The notes: generated by a model not told the origin, from the letters alone. A DNA stretch of 29,253 bases from Calditrichaceae bacterium (GCA_050178385.1 JBFXGD010000028.1:1-29253), one strand, 5' to 3'; shown: positions 1 to 28,011, counted from the stretch's first letter. Translations and numbers: made by a program.

Positions 1-97
1 TTTTTTACTGTTAGTTAATTTCACGCTGTTTTTTAGCTATTTCATTCCTGAGCTAACCCTGATTTGAGTTGTTATTTTGAAATTCTATTTGAATTTA

Positions 98-2191
98 TTA
101 TATTATCTTTTCGACCTTTGGTTGGTTCTTCTCAAATTCCTGCAGCTGCCGGGTGTATTTCTTTAACTGATCATGACGACCTATGATGGTTGTCTGTTTT
201 TTTGAAACTGAACCGCCGGATATTTCTCTGTTAAAATTTACCATTTCTCCGGATGAAGTGGCCAGTCTAAGATTTGGATACTTTTCAGATAAAATCAGCG
301 CTTCATTAAAATTGTCTACGACAGCCACATCCCCAAGAAGAATTTTTATCAGATGACGGTACTTATCATCTGTAACGATTAAATCTGAGAGCAGGGTTAG
401 GGAATTGAGGTCCTCCGGAAGTTCAGGAATTTTAATAAAACTTGTTCGATTCAGAGGAATACAAGTAATTCTGCCTTTATCTGATTCGCGGACGAGTTGT
501 ATCATTTTTTTTGCGGAATCTATATCTTCAACTAAAATATAATTAAGCGCCTCTCCCAGAACCAGTTCAACGAGCTGCGCATAATTTTCATCAACCGATA
601 TAAGTTCGGCCAGAGGGCCATGGATCCCTTTGATCTGGTCTTTCTGTGTCATCACAAATTGCGTGCTTTTTGAATGACCTTCATAATTGGCGATAATATG
701 CTGAAAAAAAGATTGGCGTGAGCGAACTTTCTCTGTTTCTACATGTAAAGTTTGCCGCTCTGTTTCGGCAGATTTTGATTTTTCCTGTAGCTGATTTGAT
801 TTTACATTGAGATCTTGAAGCTTATCGTTAAGTTCTTTAAGCCTCATTTCGGAAGTTTGTCTGTCTTTCCGGTAATTATTGAGTTCTGCTTCCTTCGTTT
901 TTAACGCTTCCGATCTGGACGCGATATTTTCGTCAATTGTGGTAACCTGTTCAGTGAGAAATCCCAGCTGATATTCTTTTTGTTTGAGAACTTCCTTCAT
1001 GTTTGACAATGACTGAAGCTGTAATCTGAATTCGCTGTTAAGTTTATCGATATCAGCTTTTTCCTTTTGCAGTTTTTCTAATTCCTTCAGTCGTTCACTC
1101 TCAATCTCGGAGTAATTGCGGTCAATGATTTCTTTTTGTGAAACAAGCTGGTCCAATTCATTCTGATATTGAACTACATTTTCTTCAAGAAGAACAATTT
1201 TATTCTCATAATCTTCAATTTCGACTTTATAGCGATCTCTCGTTTTTGTGTTTTCTTCAGCTTTGGTTTTAGCGACAGCATCAGCCTGGTTAATTCTTGC
1301 AATTTCAGCGTCTAATTCATGAATGGATGTATTTATTTTTTGTAATGCCTGCTCGGTTTTTATCTGTTCACGTTTATAATCTTCAAGTAACGCTTCATCC
1401 ATTGTGATTTGATGCGAACTTTCTTCCTTCAGCTTACTCGCTTCTTTAAGCTGAACTTCAAGAGGTCTTATGCTTTCCAGTAAGCGGTGATATCTTAGTC
1501 GGGAGAGATCAACTTCGCATTTTTTAAGTTCTTCATTAAGACTTAAATACCTTCTTGCCTTCGCGACCTGACGAGACAGCGAACTTACGGTTTTATCCAC
1601 CTCAGTTATTATATCATTAATACGGGTCAAATCGATTCGGGTGGCATCCAGCTTTTTTAACGCGGATTTTCTTCTGACTTTGTACTTTACAACACCGGCG
1701 GCTTCTTCGAACAACTGACGGCGTTCCTGCTTGTTTTCACTAAGAATACTTTCAACCATCTTTAGTTCAATTACTGAATAAGAGTTCGCGCCCATCCCGG
1801 TATCCATAAATAGATCAAGCACGTCTTTAAGTCGCACCGGCGTTTTATTTATAAGATATTGGCTTTCTCCTGAGCGATACAGGCGTCTTGAAATAACGAC
1901 TTCGTGAAATTCAGTGTCAAGAATATTTTTATTGTTTTGGATGGTCATCGAGACTTCAGTCATTCCAACAGGTTTTCTGGTCTTCGTACCGTTGAAAATC
2001 ACATTTTCCATCTTATCGCTTCTAAGAGAGCTGACACGCTGTTCACCTAAAACCCATCGAATCGCATCAACAATATTTGACTTACCGGAACCGTTGGGGC
2101 CGATGACACAGGTCAGGCCCCCGCTAAACTCAAGTTTTGTCTTTTGAGCAAATGATTTAAAACCAAGAATGTCCAATTTCGATAAATACAT
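98..2191 (-). CDS. smc: Chromosome segregation protein SMC, N-terminal ~700 aa (head N-lobe, coiled coil, hinge); frame interrupted by stops at the window edge, so probably partial
   Basis: N-terminal GFKSF, Walker A GPNGSGKSN, LRSDKMENVIFNG, RRLYRSGESQY, FEEAAG, long coiled coil, then hinge (GIHGPLAELI...ALNYILV...GRITCIPL...LLGDVAVV...ISGG). The C-terminal signature/Walker B lobe is absent; canonical SMC is ~1150-1200 aa. Confidence 0.95.
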   Translation of the reverse strand: MYLSKLDILGFKSFAQKTKLEFSGGLTCVIGPNGSGKSNIVDAIRWVLGEQRVSSLRSDKMENVIFNGTKTRKPVGMTEVSMTIQNNKNILDTEFHEVVISRRLYRSGESQYLINKTPVRLKDVLDLFMDTGMGANSYSVIELKMVESILSENKQERRQLFEEAAGVVKYKVRRKSALKKLDATRIDLTRINDIITEVDKTVSSLSRQVAKARRYLSLNEELKKCEVDLSRLRYHRLLESIRPLEVQLKEASKLKEESSHQITMDEALLEDYKREQIKTEQALQKINTSIHELDAEIARINQADAVAKTKAEENTKTRDRYKVEIEDYENKIVLLEENVVQYQNELDQLVSQKEIIDRNYSEIESERLKELEKLQKEKADIDKLNSEFRLQLQSLSNMKEVLKQKEYQLGFLTEQVTTIDENIASRSEALKTKEAELNNYRKDRQTSEMRLKELNDKLQDLNVKSNQLQEKSKSAETERQTLHVETEKVRSRQSFFQHIIANYEGHSKSTQFVMTQKDQIKGIHGPLAELISVDENYAQLVELVLGEALNYILVEDIDSAKKMIQLVRESDKGRITCIPLNRTSFIKIPELPEDLNSLTLLSDLIVTDDKYRHLIKILLGDVAVVDNFNEALILSEKYPNLRLATSSGEMVNFNREISGGSVSKKQTTIIGRHDQLKKYTRQLQEFEKNQPKVEKII

Positions 2192-2212: not shown

Positions 2213-4756
2213 TTATAATAAATTCTGAGCATTAAATATCAGCTTAAGATATTCATATAAATACGGCTCAGGCTTGAATAAAATCCAGAAGATAAGGAAA
2301 GGTACACAATAAGACAAGAGCAGCAACATTAAAATTATACTTGTCCTGGCTCTGAATAATACCTGAATGCCGTTGATTATTCGGGCATGCGCCCATAAAA
2401 TAAAAAACAGAAACAGATAGATCATGTAAGTACGAAGGCCGCCGGCAGACAGAAGTTGGTACATGGCAAGGCTCAATGGTAAAAGGAATATAAAAGGCGC
2501 GCCGGACCAGAATCCAATTGCGACTCCCTGTCTGAATCGCATTTTTTCTGCTGAAAAGAAACTGAATACTCGTAACAAAACACTGATTATAAAAGGATAA
2601 CTGTAAAAGATTAAAAAGAAAACGAGAACAGTCTTCCCGGGAGATATACTCATTTTTAGAAAGGTCTCATATAAATCCAGAGGTCCGAGTAGGTGACTGG
2701 CGGCTTCCTGAAATGTATAGGAGCCATGATAATAATTGATCACAGAACTTACAAAAACAGACAGCAGGACAGATGAATAAGCCCCGACCAGAAAAGAACT
2801 GTAAAGTGGAATGATTCTTCTCTCCCGCATATCTACAAAAAAACCGTATGGATGTCTCAAAGAACGTTTTAGATTTTCTCTAAGTCTCACTCTCTGTCTA
2901 TATATCAGTAAAAACAAAACGGTAGCAATAAATGTGATGAGAGAGAAAAAATTTGTTTTTTTTGTGACCGGTTTTTCCGGTAGAAGATTTATGTGTTCAG
3001 AATCCCAGATATTCCCGGCTGATTTATTGATCCAGGTTTTTGCCTTTCGATCGTATGTGAGCATTCCTGTCCGTATGACGAGATGATCCGGATTGTTTAT
3101 GGTGTTATGGTTTGGAAAACCGCTTTTCCAGTCGACAAAACTATCTAAAAAGCCTCCCTTTAAACCCAGTTGATTCATCGCCATCTGAATTTCGCCGCTT
3201 ATCAAGCCATAATTTTTGATCGGATCTGTTCCATTTTTGTCACTCTCAGTTCTGTTGGACAGATCAATTCCGATTTTCCCGGCGTATAAATATGGAAAAT
3301 TTAATCTCTCATTTCCCGATGACCCGTTTAGAATTGATTTGTAAGTATCATACATGTAAAAATCCGCGGCATTTTCGGGAGGAAGCGGATAGCCGGAGAT
3401 GGGCGATATGTAACTTAAAACATCCATTTTTGTTCTTACGCTTCCACTCAAAATGAGCATAAATTTTTGAGCTGCCGATTCATGAACGGGAATCTCCTGG
3501 CCGATTCCGAGTGCAACAAGGGAAGGAGATTCGGTACTGTATAATCCAAGACTTTGTATCGTTGATTTTGAAGTCTCCAGAAGATAGTCATTCTGGTACA
3601 GGGGCAGTGGATATCGCCATATAGGTATTTCAGCGAATACAAGCAGACCTAATGAGTCAGCGATATGAATCGCAGTAAAATCAGGCAGATAGTGCGGAAA
3701 GCGAACAGCATTGAATTGAAGTGATTTAATTTTTGAAAGATCAGAAACCAGGGTCCCGAAATAATCTTTTGATTTTAAACTTTCAAGGTTTTCATAGTAA
3801 CTCACACCTTTAATCACAACAGGCTGATTATTGAGAAAAAAATTATTCTCCTGAATCTGTACAGATCTTAACCCGAATCGGAGTGTATCTTCAATTATTG
3901 TATCATAACCGTTTTTTACTGAAATGATCATACTCAGTTTTTTTGGATTTTGAGGTGACCAAAGATATTCATCCGGTACCTGGGCATCACCTTGAATTAG
4001 TTGTTTCTCCGGGTCTAGCCCTGTTCGTCGCTGGAATAATTTTACGCCCGACGGAGAGAATATCTGTTCATCTACCTGAAATCGTTTTGCATTGAAAGCC
4101 TTAAGATCAGATTCATTTGTGAGAAATAAATTGACCTGATAGCTGTATCCAAAGCCAACCGCGGGTTTGAAAGTTTTAACTTTCACGTTTGCATTGCTTA
4201 TCCTGTTTTTGCTCTCAACTGATAAATACAATGGCCTTACAATTCCCGTGAGCCCGGGTTCATCGAATATATTTACAAAAGACGGGAAACCGAATTCCGG
4301 GGTCGCTGAACCCGACAAAGTTATTATTAGTTGATTTTTAACCCCCTTATTCAGAATGTCAGAAGGGATTTTAACAGAGAATGGAGCTGAATTGTTGATT
4401 TGATTATGAATAATTTTTCCGTTTAGTATAAACTGTCCGGATCCTTTGATACCGTTGCTTTTTAGAAAGATTTCAGAATTACCTGCATCAAATGCGACAT
4501 TGAAATCACATCTCAATTTAATTTGATCCGTCGAACTGGAATAAAAGGGGAGACTCAGTGACGTCCATTCACCGGTTGGGGATTGGATCTGCCAGTTATC
4601 CTGGCGGTAAAGCGGCACAATTCTGCCGTTTGATAAATATGCAGCTGATTTACCCCAATTAAGATAATGCAAATGATTTGTCTGTTCAGTTGCCGCTAAA
4701 AAAGCAGGCATAAAAACGACAATAAAAGTCATCAGAATCAGTTTGATGTTCTGCAT
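2213..4756 (-). CDS. Exported glycoside hydrolase family 2-fold protein (TIM barrel) fused to a C-terminal multi-pass membrane, Yip1-like domain; possibly catalytically inactive
   Basis: Signal peptide; LWSPQNPKKL, FGLRSVQI...FFLNNQPVVIKGV, NAVRFPHY, ADSLGLLVFAE, PSLVALGIGQE and GMLTYDRKAK match GH2 (beta-glucuronidase/galactosidase) motifs. About 6 hydrophobic helices in the last ~245 aa, with Yip1-like HPYGFF and FWSGAPF. Confidence 0.8.
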   Translation of the reverse strand: MQNIKLILMTFIVVFMPAFLAATEQTNHLHYLNWGKSAAYLSNGRIVPLYRQDNWQIQSPTGEWTSLSLPFYSSSTDQIKLRCDFNVAFDAGNSEIFLKSNGIKGSGQFILNGKIIHNQINNSAPFSVKIPSDILNKGVKNQLIITLSGSATPEFGFPSFVNIFDEPGLTGIVRPLYLSVESKNRISNANVKVKTFKPAVGFGYSYQVNLFLTNESDLKAFNAKRFQVDEQIFSPSGVKLFQRRTGLDPEKQLIQGDAQVPDEYLWSPQNPKKLSMIISVKNGYDTIIEDTLRFGLRSVQIQENNFFLNNQPVVIKGVSYYENLESLKSKDYFGTLVSDLSKIKSLQFNAVRFPHYLPDFTAIHIADSLGLLVFAEIPIWRYPLPLYQNDYLLETSKSTIQSLGLYSTESPSLVALGIGQEIPVHESAAQKFMLILSGSVRTKMDVLSYISPISGYPLPPENAADFYMYDTYKSILNGSSGNERLNFPYLYAGKIGIDLSNRTESDKNGTDPIKNYGLISGEIQMAMNQLGLKGGFLDSFVDWKSGFPNHNTINNPDHLVIRTGMLTYDRKAKTWINKSAGNIWDSEHINLLPEKPVTKKTNFFSLITFIATVLFLLIYRQRVRLRENLKRSLRHPYGFFVDMRERRIIPLYSSFLVGAYSSVLLSVFVSSVINYYHGSYTFQEAASHLLGPLDLYETFLKMSISPGKTVLVFFLIFYSYPFIISVLLRVFSFFSAEKMRFRQGVAIGFWSGAPFIFLLPLSLAMYQLLSAGGLRTYMIYLFLFFILWAHARIINGIQVLFRARTSIILMLLLLSYCVPFLIFWILFKPEPYLYEYLKLIFNAQNLL

Positions 4757-4806: not shown

Positions 4807-5517
4807 TTACATCAATGTGAGTGCATCTCTCACGGCCTGCTCAAATCCAATAGCGAGGGCTTTTGTAAAGATTGGCCTCCCGACCACAATATCTTCAATG
4901 TAATTGATTTCTGAGATATCCCGCAGATTATCATATCCAATTCCACCAGAAATATTAACTCCAAGACCAAGTTTTCCGGAGGCTAGAACCAGTCCGGTTA
5001 AATTTTCAATCGCCTGGATTTCGCGGCCCATGTCGTCAGCATCAGTAAGCGCGTTTGCTTTTAGCTCCACGTAATCGAACTCTAATTTGCCGGCTATTTT
5101 TACCTGACTGATATCAGGATCAACCAAAACGGAGCTTAGAATGTTATTTGAACGTAATTCAGTAACATATTTCTCAAGTTGGGATGCGTAGGTATCAAGA
5201 TTTATAGCATCCGCTTCGACGGAAGAAATATCTCCGGGGGCAACAAATGTGATCATATCCGGTTTAATCCTGATAAGTTTGCGGATATTTTCCTCGGTAA
5301 GATTTGTCCGCACGTTCAGGTAAGATTTTACTATCTGCCTGAACAACATAATATCACGTTCATTCACTGTCTTCAGATCATCACGCAGATAACAGACAAT
5401 GCTCTCTGCGCCGCCTAATTCCGCCAGAATCAATGCCTGAATTGGATCAGGTTCATTGCCTCCAAGAAGATTTCGTACATAAGCGACCGGATCAATATCA
5501 AGAGCTAATCGACGCAT
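4807..5517 (-). CDS. PdxJ (pyridoxine 5'-phosphate synthase)-family protein with a degenerate active site, 236 aa
   Basis: Colinear with PdxJ over its full length (LALDIDPVAYVRN, EPDPIQA, YLRDD...ERD, LVDPD, YVEL, LGLGVN, GFEQAV). Start placed at ATG 5517 (MRRL) behind GGAGG at 5522-5526. Symbol withheld because the catalytic residues are replaced. Confidence 0.85.
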   Translation of the reverse strand: MRRLALDIDPVAYVRNLLGGNEPDPIQALILAELGGAESIVCYLRDDLKTVNERDIMLFRQIVKSYLNVRTNLTEENIRKLIRIKPDMITFVAPGDISSVEADAINLDTYASQLEKYVTELRSNNILSSVLVDPDISQVKIAGKLEFDYVELKANALTDADDMGREIQAIENLTGLVLASGKLGLGVNISGGIGYDNLRDISEINYIEDIVVGRPIFTKALAIGFEQAVRDALTLM

Positions 5518-5565
5518 TTTGCCTCCATAATAATTCAAAAAAACTGCTATTTCTTTCAGGGAAAG

Positions 5566-24559: not shown

Positions 24560-26836
24560 ATGAACCTCCCGCAACTAATAGAATATTTGTCCGAAGATCA
24601 GGATTTTCAAAAAAATATCACCAAATGGACAGTCATAAATGAACGCCCTGCCGTCTATGAAAACTTCCCGGAAAATCTACATGAAAAATTAAAGGAAGCG
24701 CTGTTAAAAAAGGGTATCCGTCAGCTTTATTCACATCAGGTCGAAGCCTATAACCAGGCCAGAGAAGGAAAAAACGTGGTGATAGTCACTCCGACCGCTT
24801 CCGGAAAAACGCTCAGCTATAATCTCCCTGTATTTGAAACGATGCTCAAAAATACAGAAGCGCGGGCATTGTACCTTTTTCCAACCAAAGCTCTTTCACA
24901 GGATCAGGTCAAAGAAGTCCAGGATCTTGTTGACCTTGTTGATTCGGGAATTAAGTCGTTTACTTTTGATGGTGATACTCCCGCCGATATCCGCCGGACA
25001 ATCAGATCCGCCGGTCACCTTGTCGTCACAAATCCCGATATGCTTCATCAGGGTATTTTACCGCATCATACCTTATGGATAAAATTGTTTGAAAATTTAA
25101 AATTTATTGTTCTTGATGAAATTCACGCCTACCGTGGTGTTTTCGGGAGTCATCTTACAAATATTCTAAGGCGTTTAAAAAGAATTTGTGAATTTTACGG
25201 GAGCAATCCTCAATTTATCTGCTCAAGCGCGACGATTGCAAATCCGCAGGAGCTGGCTGAAAAATTAACGGGAGAACCGGTGACGATAATTGATAACAAT
25301 GGTTCCCCTTCAGGTGAAAAACATTTCTTATTTTATAATCCGCCGGTCATAAACTATGACCTGGGACTTCGAAAATCTGTTGTCTCCGAAGTCAGGAATG
25401 TCGTGAGAAAACTGCTCCCCACGGGAGCTCAGATTATCGTGTTTGCCAGAAGCCGTTTGCGTGTCGAAATACTCGTTACCTATATAAGAGAGACCGCGGC
25501 TCAACTAAAAATTGATCCAAATAAAATACGCGGTTATAGAGGCGGATATCTTCCGAGAGAAAGAAGAGCTATTGAAAAAGGCCTTAAAAATGGCTCGATT
25601 CAGGTCGTGGTCAGCACTAACGCGCTTGAACTGGGGATTGATATTGGGCAGCTGGATGTGGCCGTTATGGCCGGGTATCCCGGATCAGTCGCCAGCACAT
25701 GGCAGCAATCGGGAAGAGCCGGCCGCAGGCAAAGTCTTTCAATGGCAATTCTGGTGGCGTCAAGCGCGCCTTTAGATCAATATATCATTGAACATCCGGA
25801 TTACTTTTTTCTCAAAAATCCGGAAACAGCCCAGATTGATGGTGATAATCTGCCGATTCTAATGAGTCACCTTAAATGCTCCGCGTTTGAACTGCCGTTC
25901 AATGAAAAAGAGCGATTCGCGAATGATATAACAACCCATTTACTGGATTTTCTTACAGAAGAACGTGTATTGAGAAAAACAAACGGTAAGTATTTCTGGA
26001 TGAGCGAAATATACCCTGCCGATGAAGTAGGACTGCGTAACGCTTCAGCGGAAAATGTTGTGATTATTGATACGAGCGATCAAAACAGGGTCATTGGAGA
26101 AATTGATCTGTTTTCTGCCCCTGAAATTGTTCATAAGGATGCAATTTACATACATGACAGTGTACAGTATCATGTGGATGAATTTGACTGGGATGAACAG
26201 AAAGCCTACGTGCATAAAGTAAATGTTGATCATTACACTGACTCGATCACAAAAACGGATTTAAAGATTCTTGATATTCTCGAAGAAGGGAAAGATAGAG
26301 AATTCGGATATGGCAAGTTCTATGGTGAAGTCGCGGTAACGAGAGTCACAACAAGCTACAAAAAAATAAAATTTCATACCCATGAAAACATAGGGTTGGG
26401 TAGAGTATATCTGCCTGAAATGGAGATCCAGACAACCTCGCTCTGGTGGGAGTTTCCTGATGATCTGTTCATCGATCCATACTTTAAGGAATCCGTTATC
26501 GGTGATGGCTTAAAAGGCATCGCCTATACATTACAAAATCTGATTCCGCTGTATATCATGTGTGATGTTTCAGATATTTCGGTAATCCCTATGGTAAGGG
26601 CTCCTTTTAGCGGAAAGCCGACCATTTATGTATATGATAAATACCAGGGAGGCGTGGGATTGAGCAGGAAGCTTTACGCGATTGACCGTACAGCGTTGCG
26701 GGCGGTAAACGAACATATTCAGTCGTGTCCGTGCGCGAACGGCTGCCCGTCCTGCACCGGTCCAACTATTGAAGGTGGTATTTTTGGTAAAAAAAGCGCG
26801 ATTAAGATATTAAATTTATTATCCCTGAATGAATGA
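24560..26836 (+). CDS. mrfA: SF2 DEXH helicase with C-terminal DUF1998 (MrfA/YprA, SftH, Hrq1-like)
   Basis: YSHQ, TPTASGKT, FPTKALSQDQ, TNPDML, DEIH, SATIAN, TNALELGIDIG, QQSGRAGR; C-terminal MCD...YD..GG.G...CPCANGCPSC cysteine cluster. Confidence 0.9.
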   Translation: MNLPQLIEYLSEDQDFQKNITKWTVINERPAVYENFPENLHEKLKEALLKKGIRQLYSHQVEAYNQAREGKNVVIVTPTASGKTLSYNLPVFETMLKNTEARALYLFPTKALSQDQVKEVQDLVDLVDSGIKSFTFDGDTPADIRRTIRSAGHLVVTNPDMLHQGILPHHTLWIKLFENLKFIVLDEIHAYRGVFGSHLTNILRRLKRICEFYGSNPQFICSSATIANPQELAEKLTGEPVTIIDNNGSPSGEKHFLFYNPPVINYDLGLRKSVVSEVRNVVRKLLPTGAQIIVFARSRLRVEILVTYIRETAAQLKIDPNKIRGYRGGYLPRERRAIEKGLKNGSIQVVVSTNALELGIDIGQLDVAVMAGYPGSVASTWQQSGRAGRRQSLSMAILVASSAPLDQYIIEHPDYFFLKNPETAQIDGDNLPILMSHLKCSAFELPFNEKERFANDITTHLLDFLTEERVLRKTNGKYFWMSEIYPADEVGLRNASAENVVIIDTSDQNRVIGEIDLFSAPEIVHKDAIYIHDSVQYHVDEFDWDEQKAYVHKVNVDHYTDSITKTDLKILDILEEGKDREFGYGKFYGEVAVTRVTTSYKKIKFHTHENIGLGRVYLPEMEIQTTSLWWEFPDDLFIDPYFKESVIGDGLKGIAYTLQNLIPLYIMCDVSDISVIPMVRAPFSGKPTIYVYDKYQGGVGLSRKLYAIDRTALRAVNEHIQSCPCANGCPSCTGPTIEGGIFGKKSAIKILNLLSLNE

Positions 26837-28011
26837 TGGATATTAATAAAAAGCTGCAATTTTATAAATCCGGAAAAAACACCCTTTCCGAAAACAAAAC
26901 GATCAATGCCCCTGTAAATGCCCTTGCCCAGCATTTTAGCGGAGAGATTATTTCACCCGAAGCACCATACATCAAAATTTCGCGTGTGGTACAGTTGCCC
27001 GGTATGCCCGACAAATTGGATATACGTTTTTTAAGTAAGGGGCAAATGAACAAAGAAATTTTGCCGGAAAACTGTCTGTTTTTTGATCTTGAAACGACAG
27101 GACTAGCCGGTGGAGCAGGGACTTTTGCTTTTTTATTGGGATTCGGATTCATCAGAAATGACGAACTGATTATTGAACAATATTTTTTACCGGATTACGG
27201 AAGGGAGTATGATCTATTCAAAAACTTGAAGGAATGGTTGAACAATTTCTCACATCTTGTATCTTTTAATGGTAAATCTTACGATTTGCCTCTGTTAAAA
27301 AACCGGTTCATTTTAAACAGAATTATACCATCATTTCAATCAATGCTTCAAATCGACCTGCTCCATATAAGCCGCCGTCTGTGGAAAGACAGCATAGATT
27401 CTTGTAAACTCAGCTCAATTGAAAGTCATCTTTTTGGCATTACCCGTTCAGGTGATATCCCCGGAGCGCTAATTCCGCAGGCATATTTTGACTTTATCCG
27501 TACCGGAGTTGTGCATAATATCATTAAAATCATCGAACATAATTATCAGGATATTTTGTCTTCCGCGCGGATTCTCATGCGAATCCATGAAATTGAGTCA
27601 AATCCGGCTATATTAACAACGGATCCGCAGGCTTTATTGAGATTTGCCGGTTTGGCTTTTGAGAATGGTCATGAAGAAATTCTGAATTTGGTCGGGGAAA
27701 TGTATGAGGATATACCGGATCAGATTAAGGTATGGCAGAGTATTATTTATAAAAAAAACAAATCATGGCAAAAAGCTGTTTTTTTATGGAATGAGCTAAC
27801 CGCATCCCAAAGTTTCTTATTTTTCGCTCTTGAAGAATTAGCAAAATATCATGAGCATGTAAAAAAGGACCACAAAACGGCTCTTTCTTTGACCAATCGG
27901 GCGATTAAAAACCTGGAAAATCTAAGCCAACTGGATGCTTCTCTTGATCCGGAATTATATTTTTCCTCTTTCCAGCACAGAAAAATGCGTCTACTCTTAA
28001 AATTATCTTGA
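26833..28011 (+). CDS. mrfB: DEDDh RNase H-like exonuclease with C-terminal TPR (MrfB/YprB-like)
   Basis: FFDLETTGL, SFNGKSYDLP, IDLLH, DIPG..IP..Y, HNYQDI; C-terminal EELAKYHEH helical repeat; ATGA overlap with the helicase. Confidence 0.87.
   Translation: MMDINKKLQFYKSGKNTLSENKTINAPVNALAQHFSGEIISPEAPYIKISRVVQLPGMPDKLDIRFLSKGQMNKEILPENCLFFDLETTGLAGGAGTFAFLLGFGFIRNDELIIEQYFLPDYGREYDLFKNLKEWLNNFSHLVSFNGKSYDLPLLKNRFILNRIIPSFQSMLQIDLLHISRRLWKDSIDSCKLSSIESHLFGITRSGDIPGALIPQAYFDFIRTGVVHNIIKIIEHNYQDILSSARILMRIHEIESNPAILTTDPQALLRFAGLAFENGHEEILNLVGEMYEDIPDQIKVWQSIIYKKNKSWQKAVFLWNELTASQSFLFFALEELAKYHEHVKKDHKTALSLTNRAIKNLENLSQLDASLDPELYFSSFQHRKMRLLLKLS

Follow-up and report, generated by a model that had tools for sequence, protein, structure and literature searches.

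A conserved PdxJ-family barrel that has lost the catalytic residues of pyridoxine 5′-phosphate synthase

Introduction

Why does a bacterium keep a homologue of PdxJ in which the residues for pyridoxine 5′-phosphate (PNP) synthesis have been replaced? This question is raised by a gene, here termed PdxJL, on a contig of a Calditrichaceae bacterium (GCA_050178385.1, JBFXGD010000028.1); the whole stretch of 29,253 nt that was analyzed is referred to as the window. In a preliminary description of this DNA, which relied on a by-eye alignment, the gene was regarded as an intact PdxJ homologue whose fold is maintained by selection for a role different from PNP synthesis.

PdxJ forms PNP from DXP and 3-amino-2-oxopropyl phosphate. 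In E. coli PdxJ, the residues H45, E72 and H193 are taken here to be the acid/base residues of the reaction, and N9, H12, R20, R47, H52, T102/T103, G194 and G215/H216 to contact substrates and phosphate. A precedent for an inactive protein derived from an enzyme of the vitamin B6 pathways is known from plants, in which PDX1.2, a conserved pseudoenzyme paralogue of PdxS/PDX1, acts by joining the active paralogue.

Materials and Methods

The protein sequence of PdxJL was compared with the PDB by phmmer and with the profiles of Pfam and NCBIfam; the curated equivalog cut-offs of the latter are those by which NCBI names pdxJ. Alignment A1 consisted of the PdxJL of the window and 50 sequences of its phylum (host phylum), 51 sequences in total. 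Sequences were classed as canonical if the triad H45/E72/H193 was present, which was the case for 67 sequences. Unless PdxJL numbering is indicated, residue positions are those of E. coli PdxJ. For the scan of species genomes an alignment of six distant dead PdxJ sequences (A3) was used as query. Most of the genomes surveyed were MAGs.

The dN/dS ratios were calculated according to Nei-Gojobori. The phylogenetic tree was computed for 56 rows with IQ-TREE under the PMSF model in a short search without outgroup, and branch support is given as SH-aLRT only. The structure of PdxJL was predicted with AlphaFold2 on A1 and compared with known structures by Foldseek.

Results and Discussion

PdxJL belongs to the PdxJ family in both ancestry and fold

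The Pfam PdxJ model (PF03740) matched PdxJL with 183.5 bits (E 4.5e-54; gathering cut-off 24.5) over residues 3-236 and profile positions 1-234 of 234. Together with the open frame and the GGAGG in front of the ATG (Table 1), this bears out the earlier view of the gene as an intact PdxJ homologue. The protein starts with M-x-R-L, and since the 50 orthologues in A1 align from this same start, a TTG seven codons upstream is an unlikely start codon. Homologues of equal length with 58-96% identity are abundant. On the same Pfam model canonical PdxJ genes reach 316-326 bits versus 183 for PdxJL, and all six NCBIfam pdxJ equivalog models place PdxJL below their curated cut-offs, the best being NF003625 (153.9 versus 190 bits), with TIGR00559 at 123.3 versus 192.75 bits.

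Table 1. Features at the PdxJL locus, in coordinates of the window.
Feature	Position	Strand	Remarks
847-aa GH2-like protein	2213..4756	-	directly downstream of PdxJL
PdxJ-like (PdxJL) CDS	4807..5517	-	236 aa and stop; PNP-synthase residues replaced in TIM barrel
GGAGG, Shine-Dalgarno-like	5522..5526	-	4 nt 5′ of the ATG at 5515..5517; read from sequence
Putative lipoprotein, 176 aa	5566..6096	-	directly upstream of PdxJL; lipobox-like Cys by eye
Putative lipoprotein, 215 aa	6098..6745	-	first in the co-directional cluster, divergent from ligA

The AlphaFold2 model of PdxJL has eight strands (pLDDT 93.4, pTM 0.90), and its lowest confidence was found in the former lid region. According to Foldseek, the model reaches a TM of 0.93 to six PdxJ entries, including 3gk0, 5dlc, 3f4n, 1ho1 and 6rg0, and the next fold families are ribulose-phosphate-type barrels, for example ribulose-phosphate 3-epimerase, with a TM of about 0.68. 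In the predicted structure the PdxJ-type (beta/alpha)8 barrel is kept. Prediction of a PdxJL homodimer gave a score of 0.10 against a mark of 0.42, a value that is taken to speak neither for nor against a dimer, and a search of the ESM Atlas with PdxJL, PF03740 being excluded, returned no usable match.

The catalytic residues and the lid sequence are lost across the host phylum

In the phmmer comparison PdxJL residues 4-235 were aligned with residues 6-237 of E. coli PdxJ (1m5w/1ho1; E 4e-26), with one gap per side in the loop after strand 4. In this alignment NIDH is replaced by DIDP (N9D, H12P), R20 by L, VHLREDRRH by CYLRDDLKT (H45Y, H52T), MNLE by LNVR (E72R), EIH by ELK, NAGHG by NISGG (H193G) and IGH by VGR (H216R), and the loop PEKRQEVTTEGG has become APGDISSVEAD-A (T102E, T103A). 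R47, G194 and G215 are retained. Every substitution that had been listed by eye was thus reproduced by the computed alignment, and this alignment did not restore H45, E72 or H193; the corresponding residues of the PdxJL of the window are Y43, R70 and G191.

The signature that has been lost is a strict one. In 26 complete PdxJ genes from other phyla N9, D11, H12, R20, H45, R47, H52, E72, T102, E153, H193, G194, G215 and H216 are common to all, with only position 70 varying, and nearly all of 41 triad-bearing metagenome representatives carry this same canonical signature. Among the 51 host-phylum sequences of A1, E72 is present in none (44 R, 7 H) and H193 in none (50 G, 1 A); H12, R20 and H52 are each absent from all 51, and H45 occurs in four. 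The catalytic face has nevertheless kept part of its residues, as D11 (51/51), N70 (48/51), E153 (49/51) and G215 (47/51) are retained, and R or H is present at position 72 of this face in all 51 sequences. In PdxJL numbering, the conserved positions of the old catalytic face are D9, N68, R/H70, E151, N188, G191 and G213. Position 194 of the phosphate loop is poorly conserved, with about 55% G and Pro in two sequences. In total, A1 has 16 invariant columns and a further 25 with a conservation of 90% or more.

PdxJ is octameric, and its residues 95-105 form a lid, an active-site loop that closes (PMC10471632). At the lid positions 93-104, eight of twelve are conserved at 82-100% in the 67 canonical sequences, and the same positions are variable in PdxJL. 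Hence, the host phylum as a whole has lost the residues for catalysis and substrate binding, along with the conserved sequence of the lid. In the dead loci of the sister clade described below, Q, L, I or K is found at position 72, and over the dead clade as a whole positions 45 and 193 are variable.

Conversely, R3, M88, K140, D148, Y149, K182, G186 and E208 are conserved in PdxJL and not in the 67 canonical sequences. These positions were considered as a new functional surface of PdxJL; as they were also found in the nearest canonical PdxJ proteins, L074 and L075, they are inherited and not new, and the proposal was dropped.

Vitamin B6 synthesis and supply of the PdxJ substrate

No second PdxJ-family gene was found in the genome of the window, which is 94% complete. 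Its PdxS and PdxT genes adjoin each other, and PdxS is present in 82 of the 86 host-phylum genomes. PLP synthesis is, judging from gene content, covered by PdxS/PdxT in the genome of the window and in most of the host phylum. The search of the genome that the preliminary description had proposed thus ended with canonical pdxJ absent and with PdxS/PdxT and PdxA present.

No DXP synthase gene over the cut-off was detected in the genome of the window, the best match being a transketolase-like pair with 175.5 versus 465.95 bits. Of the 86 host-phylum genomes, 10 have a dxs gene over the cut-off; all of these belong to family f8, and families f1-f7, with three single-contig genomes among them, have none. 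As dxs is absent from the other 76 genomes, DXP, the substrate of PdxJ, is not made in most of the host phylum. HMG-CoA reductase is present in the genome of the window, which fits isoprenoid synthesis via the mevalonate route. The occurrence of dxs in 10 of 86 genomes and of HMG-CoA reductase in that of the window suggests, as a side observation, that the mevalonate and MEP routes are split within the host phylum. A role of PdxJL as a DXP sensor in the genome of the window was also considered and rejected, with dxs absent from f1-f7 and the HMG-CoA reductase of the mevalonate route present.

PdxA of the genome of the window passes the TIGR00557 cut-off (336 versus 290 bits), and the only pdxH-like match, with 34.6 bits, spans 41 residues where a contig is cut off, so that the pathway context of a functional PdxJ (dxs, PdxA and PdxH) was found only in part. 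PdxA occurs in 35 of the 86 host-phylum genomes and is absent from 51, which nearly all keep PdxJL; PdxA is found mainly in families in which PdxJL retains R47. By family, PdxA was observed in f1, f2, f3 and f5 and was absent from f4, f6 and f8. The PdxA gene of the genome of the window (G000:C69:10823-11698; L002 1408..2394) stands alone between unrelated genes, one metH-like and one for a methyltransferase, in a genome without DXS and without a functional PdxJ.

Outside the host phylum PdxS was found in four of five genomes with PdxJL that were checked. The fifth, a Latescibacterota-labelled genome, has no PdxS; it carries PdxJL behind a deacetylase gene and a second, triad-bearing PdxJ elsewhere. 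As this genome keeps PdxJL without PdxS, retention of PdxJL is independent of the B6 route used. Among five checked genomes with canonical PdxJ, none contained PdxS.

PdxJL is retained under purifying selection

A PdxJ-family match was found in 82 of 86 host-phylum genomes and in all 53 high-quality ones, nearly always as a single copy. Comparison of PdxJL with its counterpart in a genome of the same genus resulted in a dN/dS of 0.046 (dN 0.026, dS 0.57), and four other unsaturated pairs gave values of 0.03, 0.12, 0.07 and 0.017. Simple decay, for which a dN/dS near 1 and a lack of conserved orthologues had been named as indications, is not what was seen at dN/dS values of 0.02-0.12 and with a match in 82 of 86 genomes. 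As a homologue of an enzyme that has lost the catalytic residues and evolves under purifying selection, PdxJL can on sequence grounds be described as a pseudoenzyme.

Broken or split copies of PdxJL are few (G020, G044 and G061). In two of these exceptions, a TAA lies inside the match or the gene is split in two (G020:C30:26012-26710; G044:C7:776653-777349). Genome G039 contains two equally scoring copies on opposite strands, 12 kb apart (C18:33608-34306 and C18:46336-47034).

Non-catalytic PdxJ proteins form a wider clade

A search of 1.84 billion representatives with PdxJL gave 1985 matches. Among the best 150 of these, 133 were full-length, 41 with and 92 without the triad, a ranking which favours relatives of the query and is no census. 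Of ten clusters of distant representatives, three carry a name, namely one function name, one Calditrichota and one Zixibacteria. The scan of species genomes yielded 53 loci: 22 non-catalytic ones outside the host phylum, 26 complete and one broken canonical ones, three of the host phylum and one fragment. The 22 outside non-catalytic loci include KSB1-, Latescibacterota- and Gemmatimonadetes-labelled MAGs. At L107 (5995..6704), in a Gemmatimonadota-labelled MAG, a canonical pdxJ is matched in two pieces that lie in different frames, due to either a frameshift or an assembly error.

In the tree of 56 rows all 39 non-catalytic rows, which stem from the host phylum and from KSB1-, Latescibacterota-, Zixibacteria-labelled and other MAGs, were located together on the same side of a branch whose SH-aLRT support is 98%. 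Split and support were unchanged after 32 active-site and lid columns and a single long row had been dropped. The separate conserved clade for which an alignment and a tree had been proposed as a check was thus recovered. The nearest canonical neighbours of the dead clade are L074, L075 and Chitinispirillaceae-labelled genes. This topology favours one ancient loss of PdxJ catalysis, although fast-evolving rows may attract each other. FastTree also places triad-less rows near or within the canonical clade, and further independent losses of the triad are likely from these sequences.

Gene neighbourhood of PdxJL

In the host phylum PdxJL is embedded in a conserved arrangement of genes. A homologue of the 176-aa lipoprotein is located directly upstream of PdxJL in 50 of 50 loci, and the 215-aa lipoprotein was found upstream of it, divergent from ligA, in 47 of these. 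For neither lipoprotein was a Pfam or NCBIfam family matched; their family HMMs cross-hit, and the two are distant paralogues. The 176-aa lipoprotein has a dN/dS of 0.11 versus the genome of the same genus, and its clusters in the ESM Atlas bear no family name, with a weak NTF2/SnoaL-like match as a lead only. The 847-aa protein directly follows PdxJL in all 30 loci from the nearer families and in none of the 20 from the farther families. Its match to Pfam Glyco_hydro_2_C (34.3 bits) is limited to the first 83 positions of the profile, NCBIfam beta-galactosidase models matched it weakly, and no family covers its membrane part. By eye, it displays a signal-like N-terminus, a GH2-like region with sugar-binding, Ig and partial TIM parts, and hydrophobic helices in the C-terminal third.

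Outside the host phylum, a gene for a membrane-anchored PF04748 protein (divergent polysaccharide deacetylase) is located directly upstream in 21 of the 22 non-catalytic loci, the remaining locus having only 265 nt of upstream DNA. In 12 of the 22 loci (KSB1-labelled and other MAGs) the family HMM of the 215-aa lipoprotein detected a gene upstream, preceding the PF04748 gene, compared with none of 27 canonical loci. In E. coli, PF04748 is represented by YibQ/SddA, which deacetylates denuded peptidoglycan strands in the periplasm and has been linked to septal amidase control (bioRxiv 10.1101/2025.02.18.638797). The order deacetylase-pdxJ also occurs in 5 of the 27 canonical loci. The adjacency is thus inherited, with PdxJL as the positional descendant of pdxJ, and it need not be functional. 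An obligatory partnership with the deacetylase in the host phylum was discarded, as the genome of the window lacks a PF04748 gene.

The gene yjeF, for NAD(P)HX repair, adjoins PdxJL in nine of nine f8 loci and is near PdxJL in the sister clade; clustering of yjeF and pdxJ has been published before (PMC5938422). Another observation concerns a membrane protein of about 400 aa without a Pfam family and with a conserved N-terminus (L064 2433..3650, homologues in L057-L081), encoded two or three genes upstream of the sister-clade dead PdxJ, between yjeF and the lipoprotein gene.

Possible role of PdxJL

Compared with PdxJ (EC 2.6.99.2, PF03740, 1ho1/1m5w), PdxJL is alike in length, fold and number of strands (eight; TM 0.93) and keeps, besides D11, N70, E153 and G215, the core residues DP, E33, G36, D55 and P86, whereas H45, E72, H193, H12, R20, H52, T102/T103 and the lid sequence are replaced and most host genomes lack DXP synthase. 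The preferred reading, to which a probability of roughly 55% is assigned, is that PdxJL has a non-catalytic binding or structural role. The barrel would no longer make PNP, and the dead clade would be old and probably of single origin. PdxJL would act by binding and not by catalysis, because the lid, which in PdxJ closes over the substrates, is free of constraint and the members of the clade do not share an acid/base set that could stand in for the lost one. The Arg/His at the position of E72 would lie beside the retained equivalents of D11, N70 and E153 and the glycine after strand 8, and this cluster may either plug the old pocket by salt bridges or accommodate an anionic ligand different from DXP. 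The dN/dS of 0.02-0.12, the conserved clade and the presence of PdxS/PdxT agree with selection for a role outside PNP synthesis, as anticipated in the preliminary description.

A neofunctionalized enzyme, catalyzing another reaction of a probably phosphorylated or anionic substrate with the equivalents of D11 and E153 and Arg/His 72, is a possible though less likely explanation. The residues D9, N68, R/H70, E151, N188, G191 and G213 (PdxJL numbering) are conserved on the catalytic face across the host phylum, the dN/dS of PdxJL is as low as that of enzymes, and the nearest other folds, at a TM of about 0.68, are phosphate-binding barrels such as ribulose-phosphate 3-epimerase. On the other hand, there is no alternative residue set across the dead clade, since the R/H found at position 72 in the host phylum gives way to Q, L, I or K in the sister loci, with positions 45 and 193 free to vary; moreover, the lid loop is unconstrained, and in the phosphate loop position 194 varies, with Pro in two sequences.

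With regard to the origin of a binding or structural role, the clade probably descends from the pdxJ gene that in related lineages follows a gene for an SddA/YibQ-like peptidoglycan deacetylase. As in the sister dead clade, the canonical pdxJ genes L074, L078, L080, L082 and L084, from Chitinispirillaceae-labelled MAGs and one other MAG, lie behind such a gene. The L074/L075-type proteins (L075 was compared alongside) have R3, M88, K140, D148 and K182 in common with PdxJL but keep the full catalytic signature, unlike PdxJL; the genomes of the nearest canonical PdxJ proteins have one PdxJ each, PdxS in 0 of 5 and no match to the lipoprotein family upstream. The retained role could be a second, non-enzymatic job already held by the ancestral PdxJ in this gene cluster, which is weakly suggested by the fact that the conserved operon partners are envelope proteins, namely lipoproteins in the host phylum and an SddA-like deacetylase in other lineages; the envelope link of PdxJL is a weak lead from gene order. 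In its most specific form, PdxJ of the FCB-type lineages would have had a second, non-enzymatic job linked to the envelope or division gene cluster around it (SddA-like deacetylase, lipoproteins and membrane proteins), and one ancient lineage would have kept only this job once another PLP source had arisen, giving rise to a family of dead barrels in several phyla, PdxJL among them, that would serve envelope functions as cytoplasmic binding or scaffold partners. This scenario is speculative and regarded as rather improbable.

That PdxJL is still a PNP synthase with unusual residues, as in public annotation, is very improbable. The full-length Pfam match, the naming of its relatives in public sources and the survival of part of the DXP-dependent route in the genome of the window, namely PdxA over the TIGR00557 cut-off and the pdxH-like fragment of 34.6 bits at a contig edge, are in line with such a function, but the signature of all 26 complete canonical genes is lost and every NCBIfam equivalog model scores below its cut-off (153.9 versus 190 for the best). 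Besides, DXP synthase is absent from the genome of the window and from 76 of 86 host-phylum genomes, PdxS/PdxT are present, and 51 of 86 genomes, nearly all of them with PdxJL, lack PdxA.

Practically no weight is given to a decaying relic, that is, a pseudogene with a frame still open: the catalytic residues are lost and PdxJL evolves faster than its neighbour LigA (31-39% versus 50-58% identity to the farther families), but it is full-length in 53 of 53 high-quality genomes with dN/dS values of 0.02-0.12 and few broken copies, 16 invariant and 25 further columns of A1 at least 90% conserved, and a confident fold. Equally negligible is the view of PdxJL as the inactive or regulatory partner of a functional PdxJ, in the manner of plant PDX1.2, for which one Latescibacterota-labelled genome with a dead and a triad-bearing PdxJ might speak: the genome of the window and nearly every host-phylum genome have a single PdxJ-family gene, none of the 51 host-phylum sequences is canonical, and a canonical pdxJ in the unassembled 6% is argued against by its absence from three single-contig genomes. 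The hetero-oligomer subunit mentioned in the preliminary description consequently found no support. PdxJL and PDX1.2 are nevertheless alike in being conserved, inactive proteins that derive from an enzyme of vitamin B6 synthesis; the two differ in that there is no active PdxJ in the genome of PdxJL and that PdxJL belongs to the DXP-dependent route.

Annotation and significance

PdxJL should not be filed as pyridoxine 5′-phosphate synthase. NCBI and JGI sources label its relatives with this name. In a comparative B6 study of 2023, pdxJ is the signature of the DXP-dependent route and is called well annotated, and Caldithrix abyssi is one of ten genomes listed there as apparently having both B6 routes (PMC9997740). 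The misannotation as pdxJ that had been expected is therefore seen both in these names and in the survey entry for Caldithrix abyssi. The PdxJL family makes genomes look two-routed for vitamin B6, and where PdxJL is mistaken for pdxJ, metabolic reconstructions of the host phylum and of several candidate phyla are wrong at this point. No paper describing such a non-catalytic PdxJ family was found in a literature search whose coverage left out most subscription journals.

Here, a central biosynthetic enzyme has been kept very long after losing its chemistry, in genomes where its substrate is mostly not made, which makes PdxJL a clean case of an enzyme fold apparently retained for a second function. 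This function is accessible to experiments, given the small size, apparent solubility and confident fold of the protein and the existence of cultured members of the host phylum.

Other features of the window

An SMC gene (1..2191, minus strand) ends at codon 697, where two stops in frame lie close to the start of the contig. After these stops, the sequence in the same frame resembles the continuing coiled coil of the L087 homologue and contains further stops, so that either the contig end is of poor quality or smc is broken. At 24560..28011 (plus strand) the gene for a DEAD/Helicase_C protein that bears an MrfA Zn-binding domain precedes one for an RNase_H_2-type exonuclease, a gene pair that resembles the MrfAB DNA-repair module.
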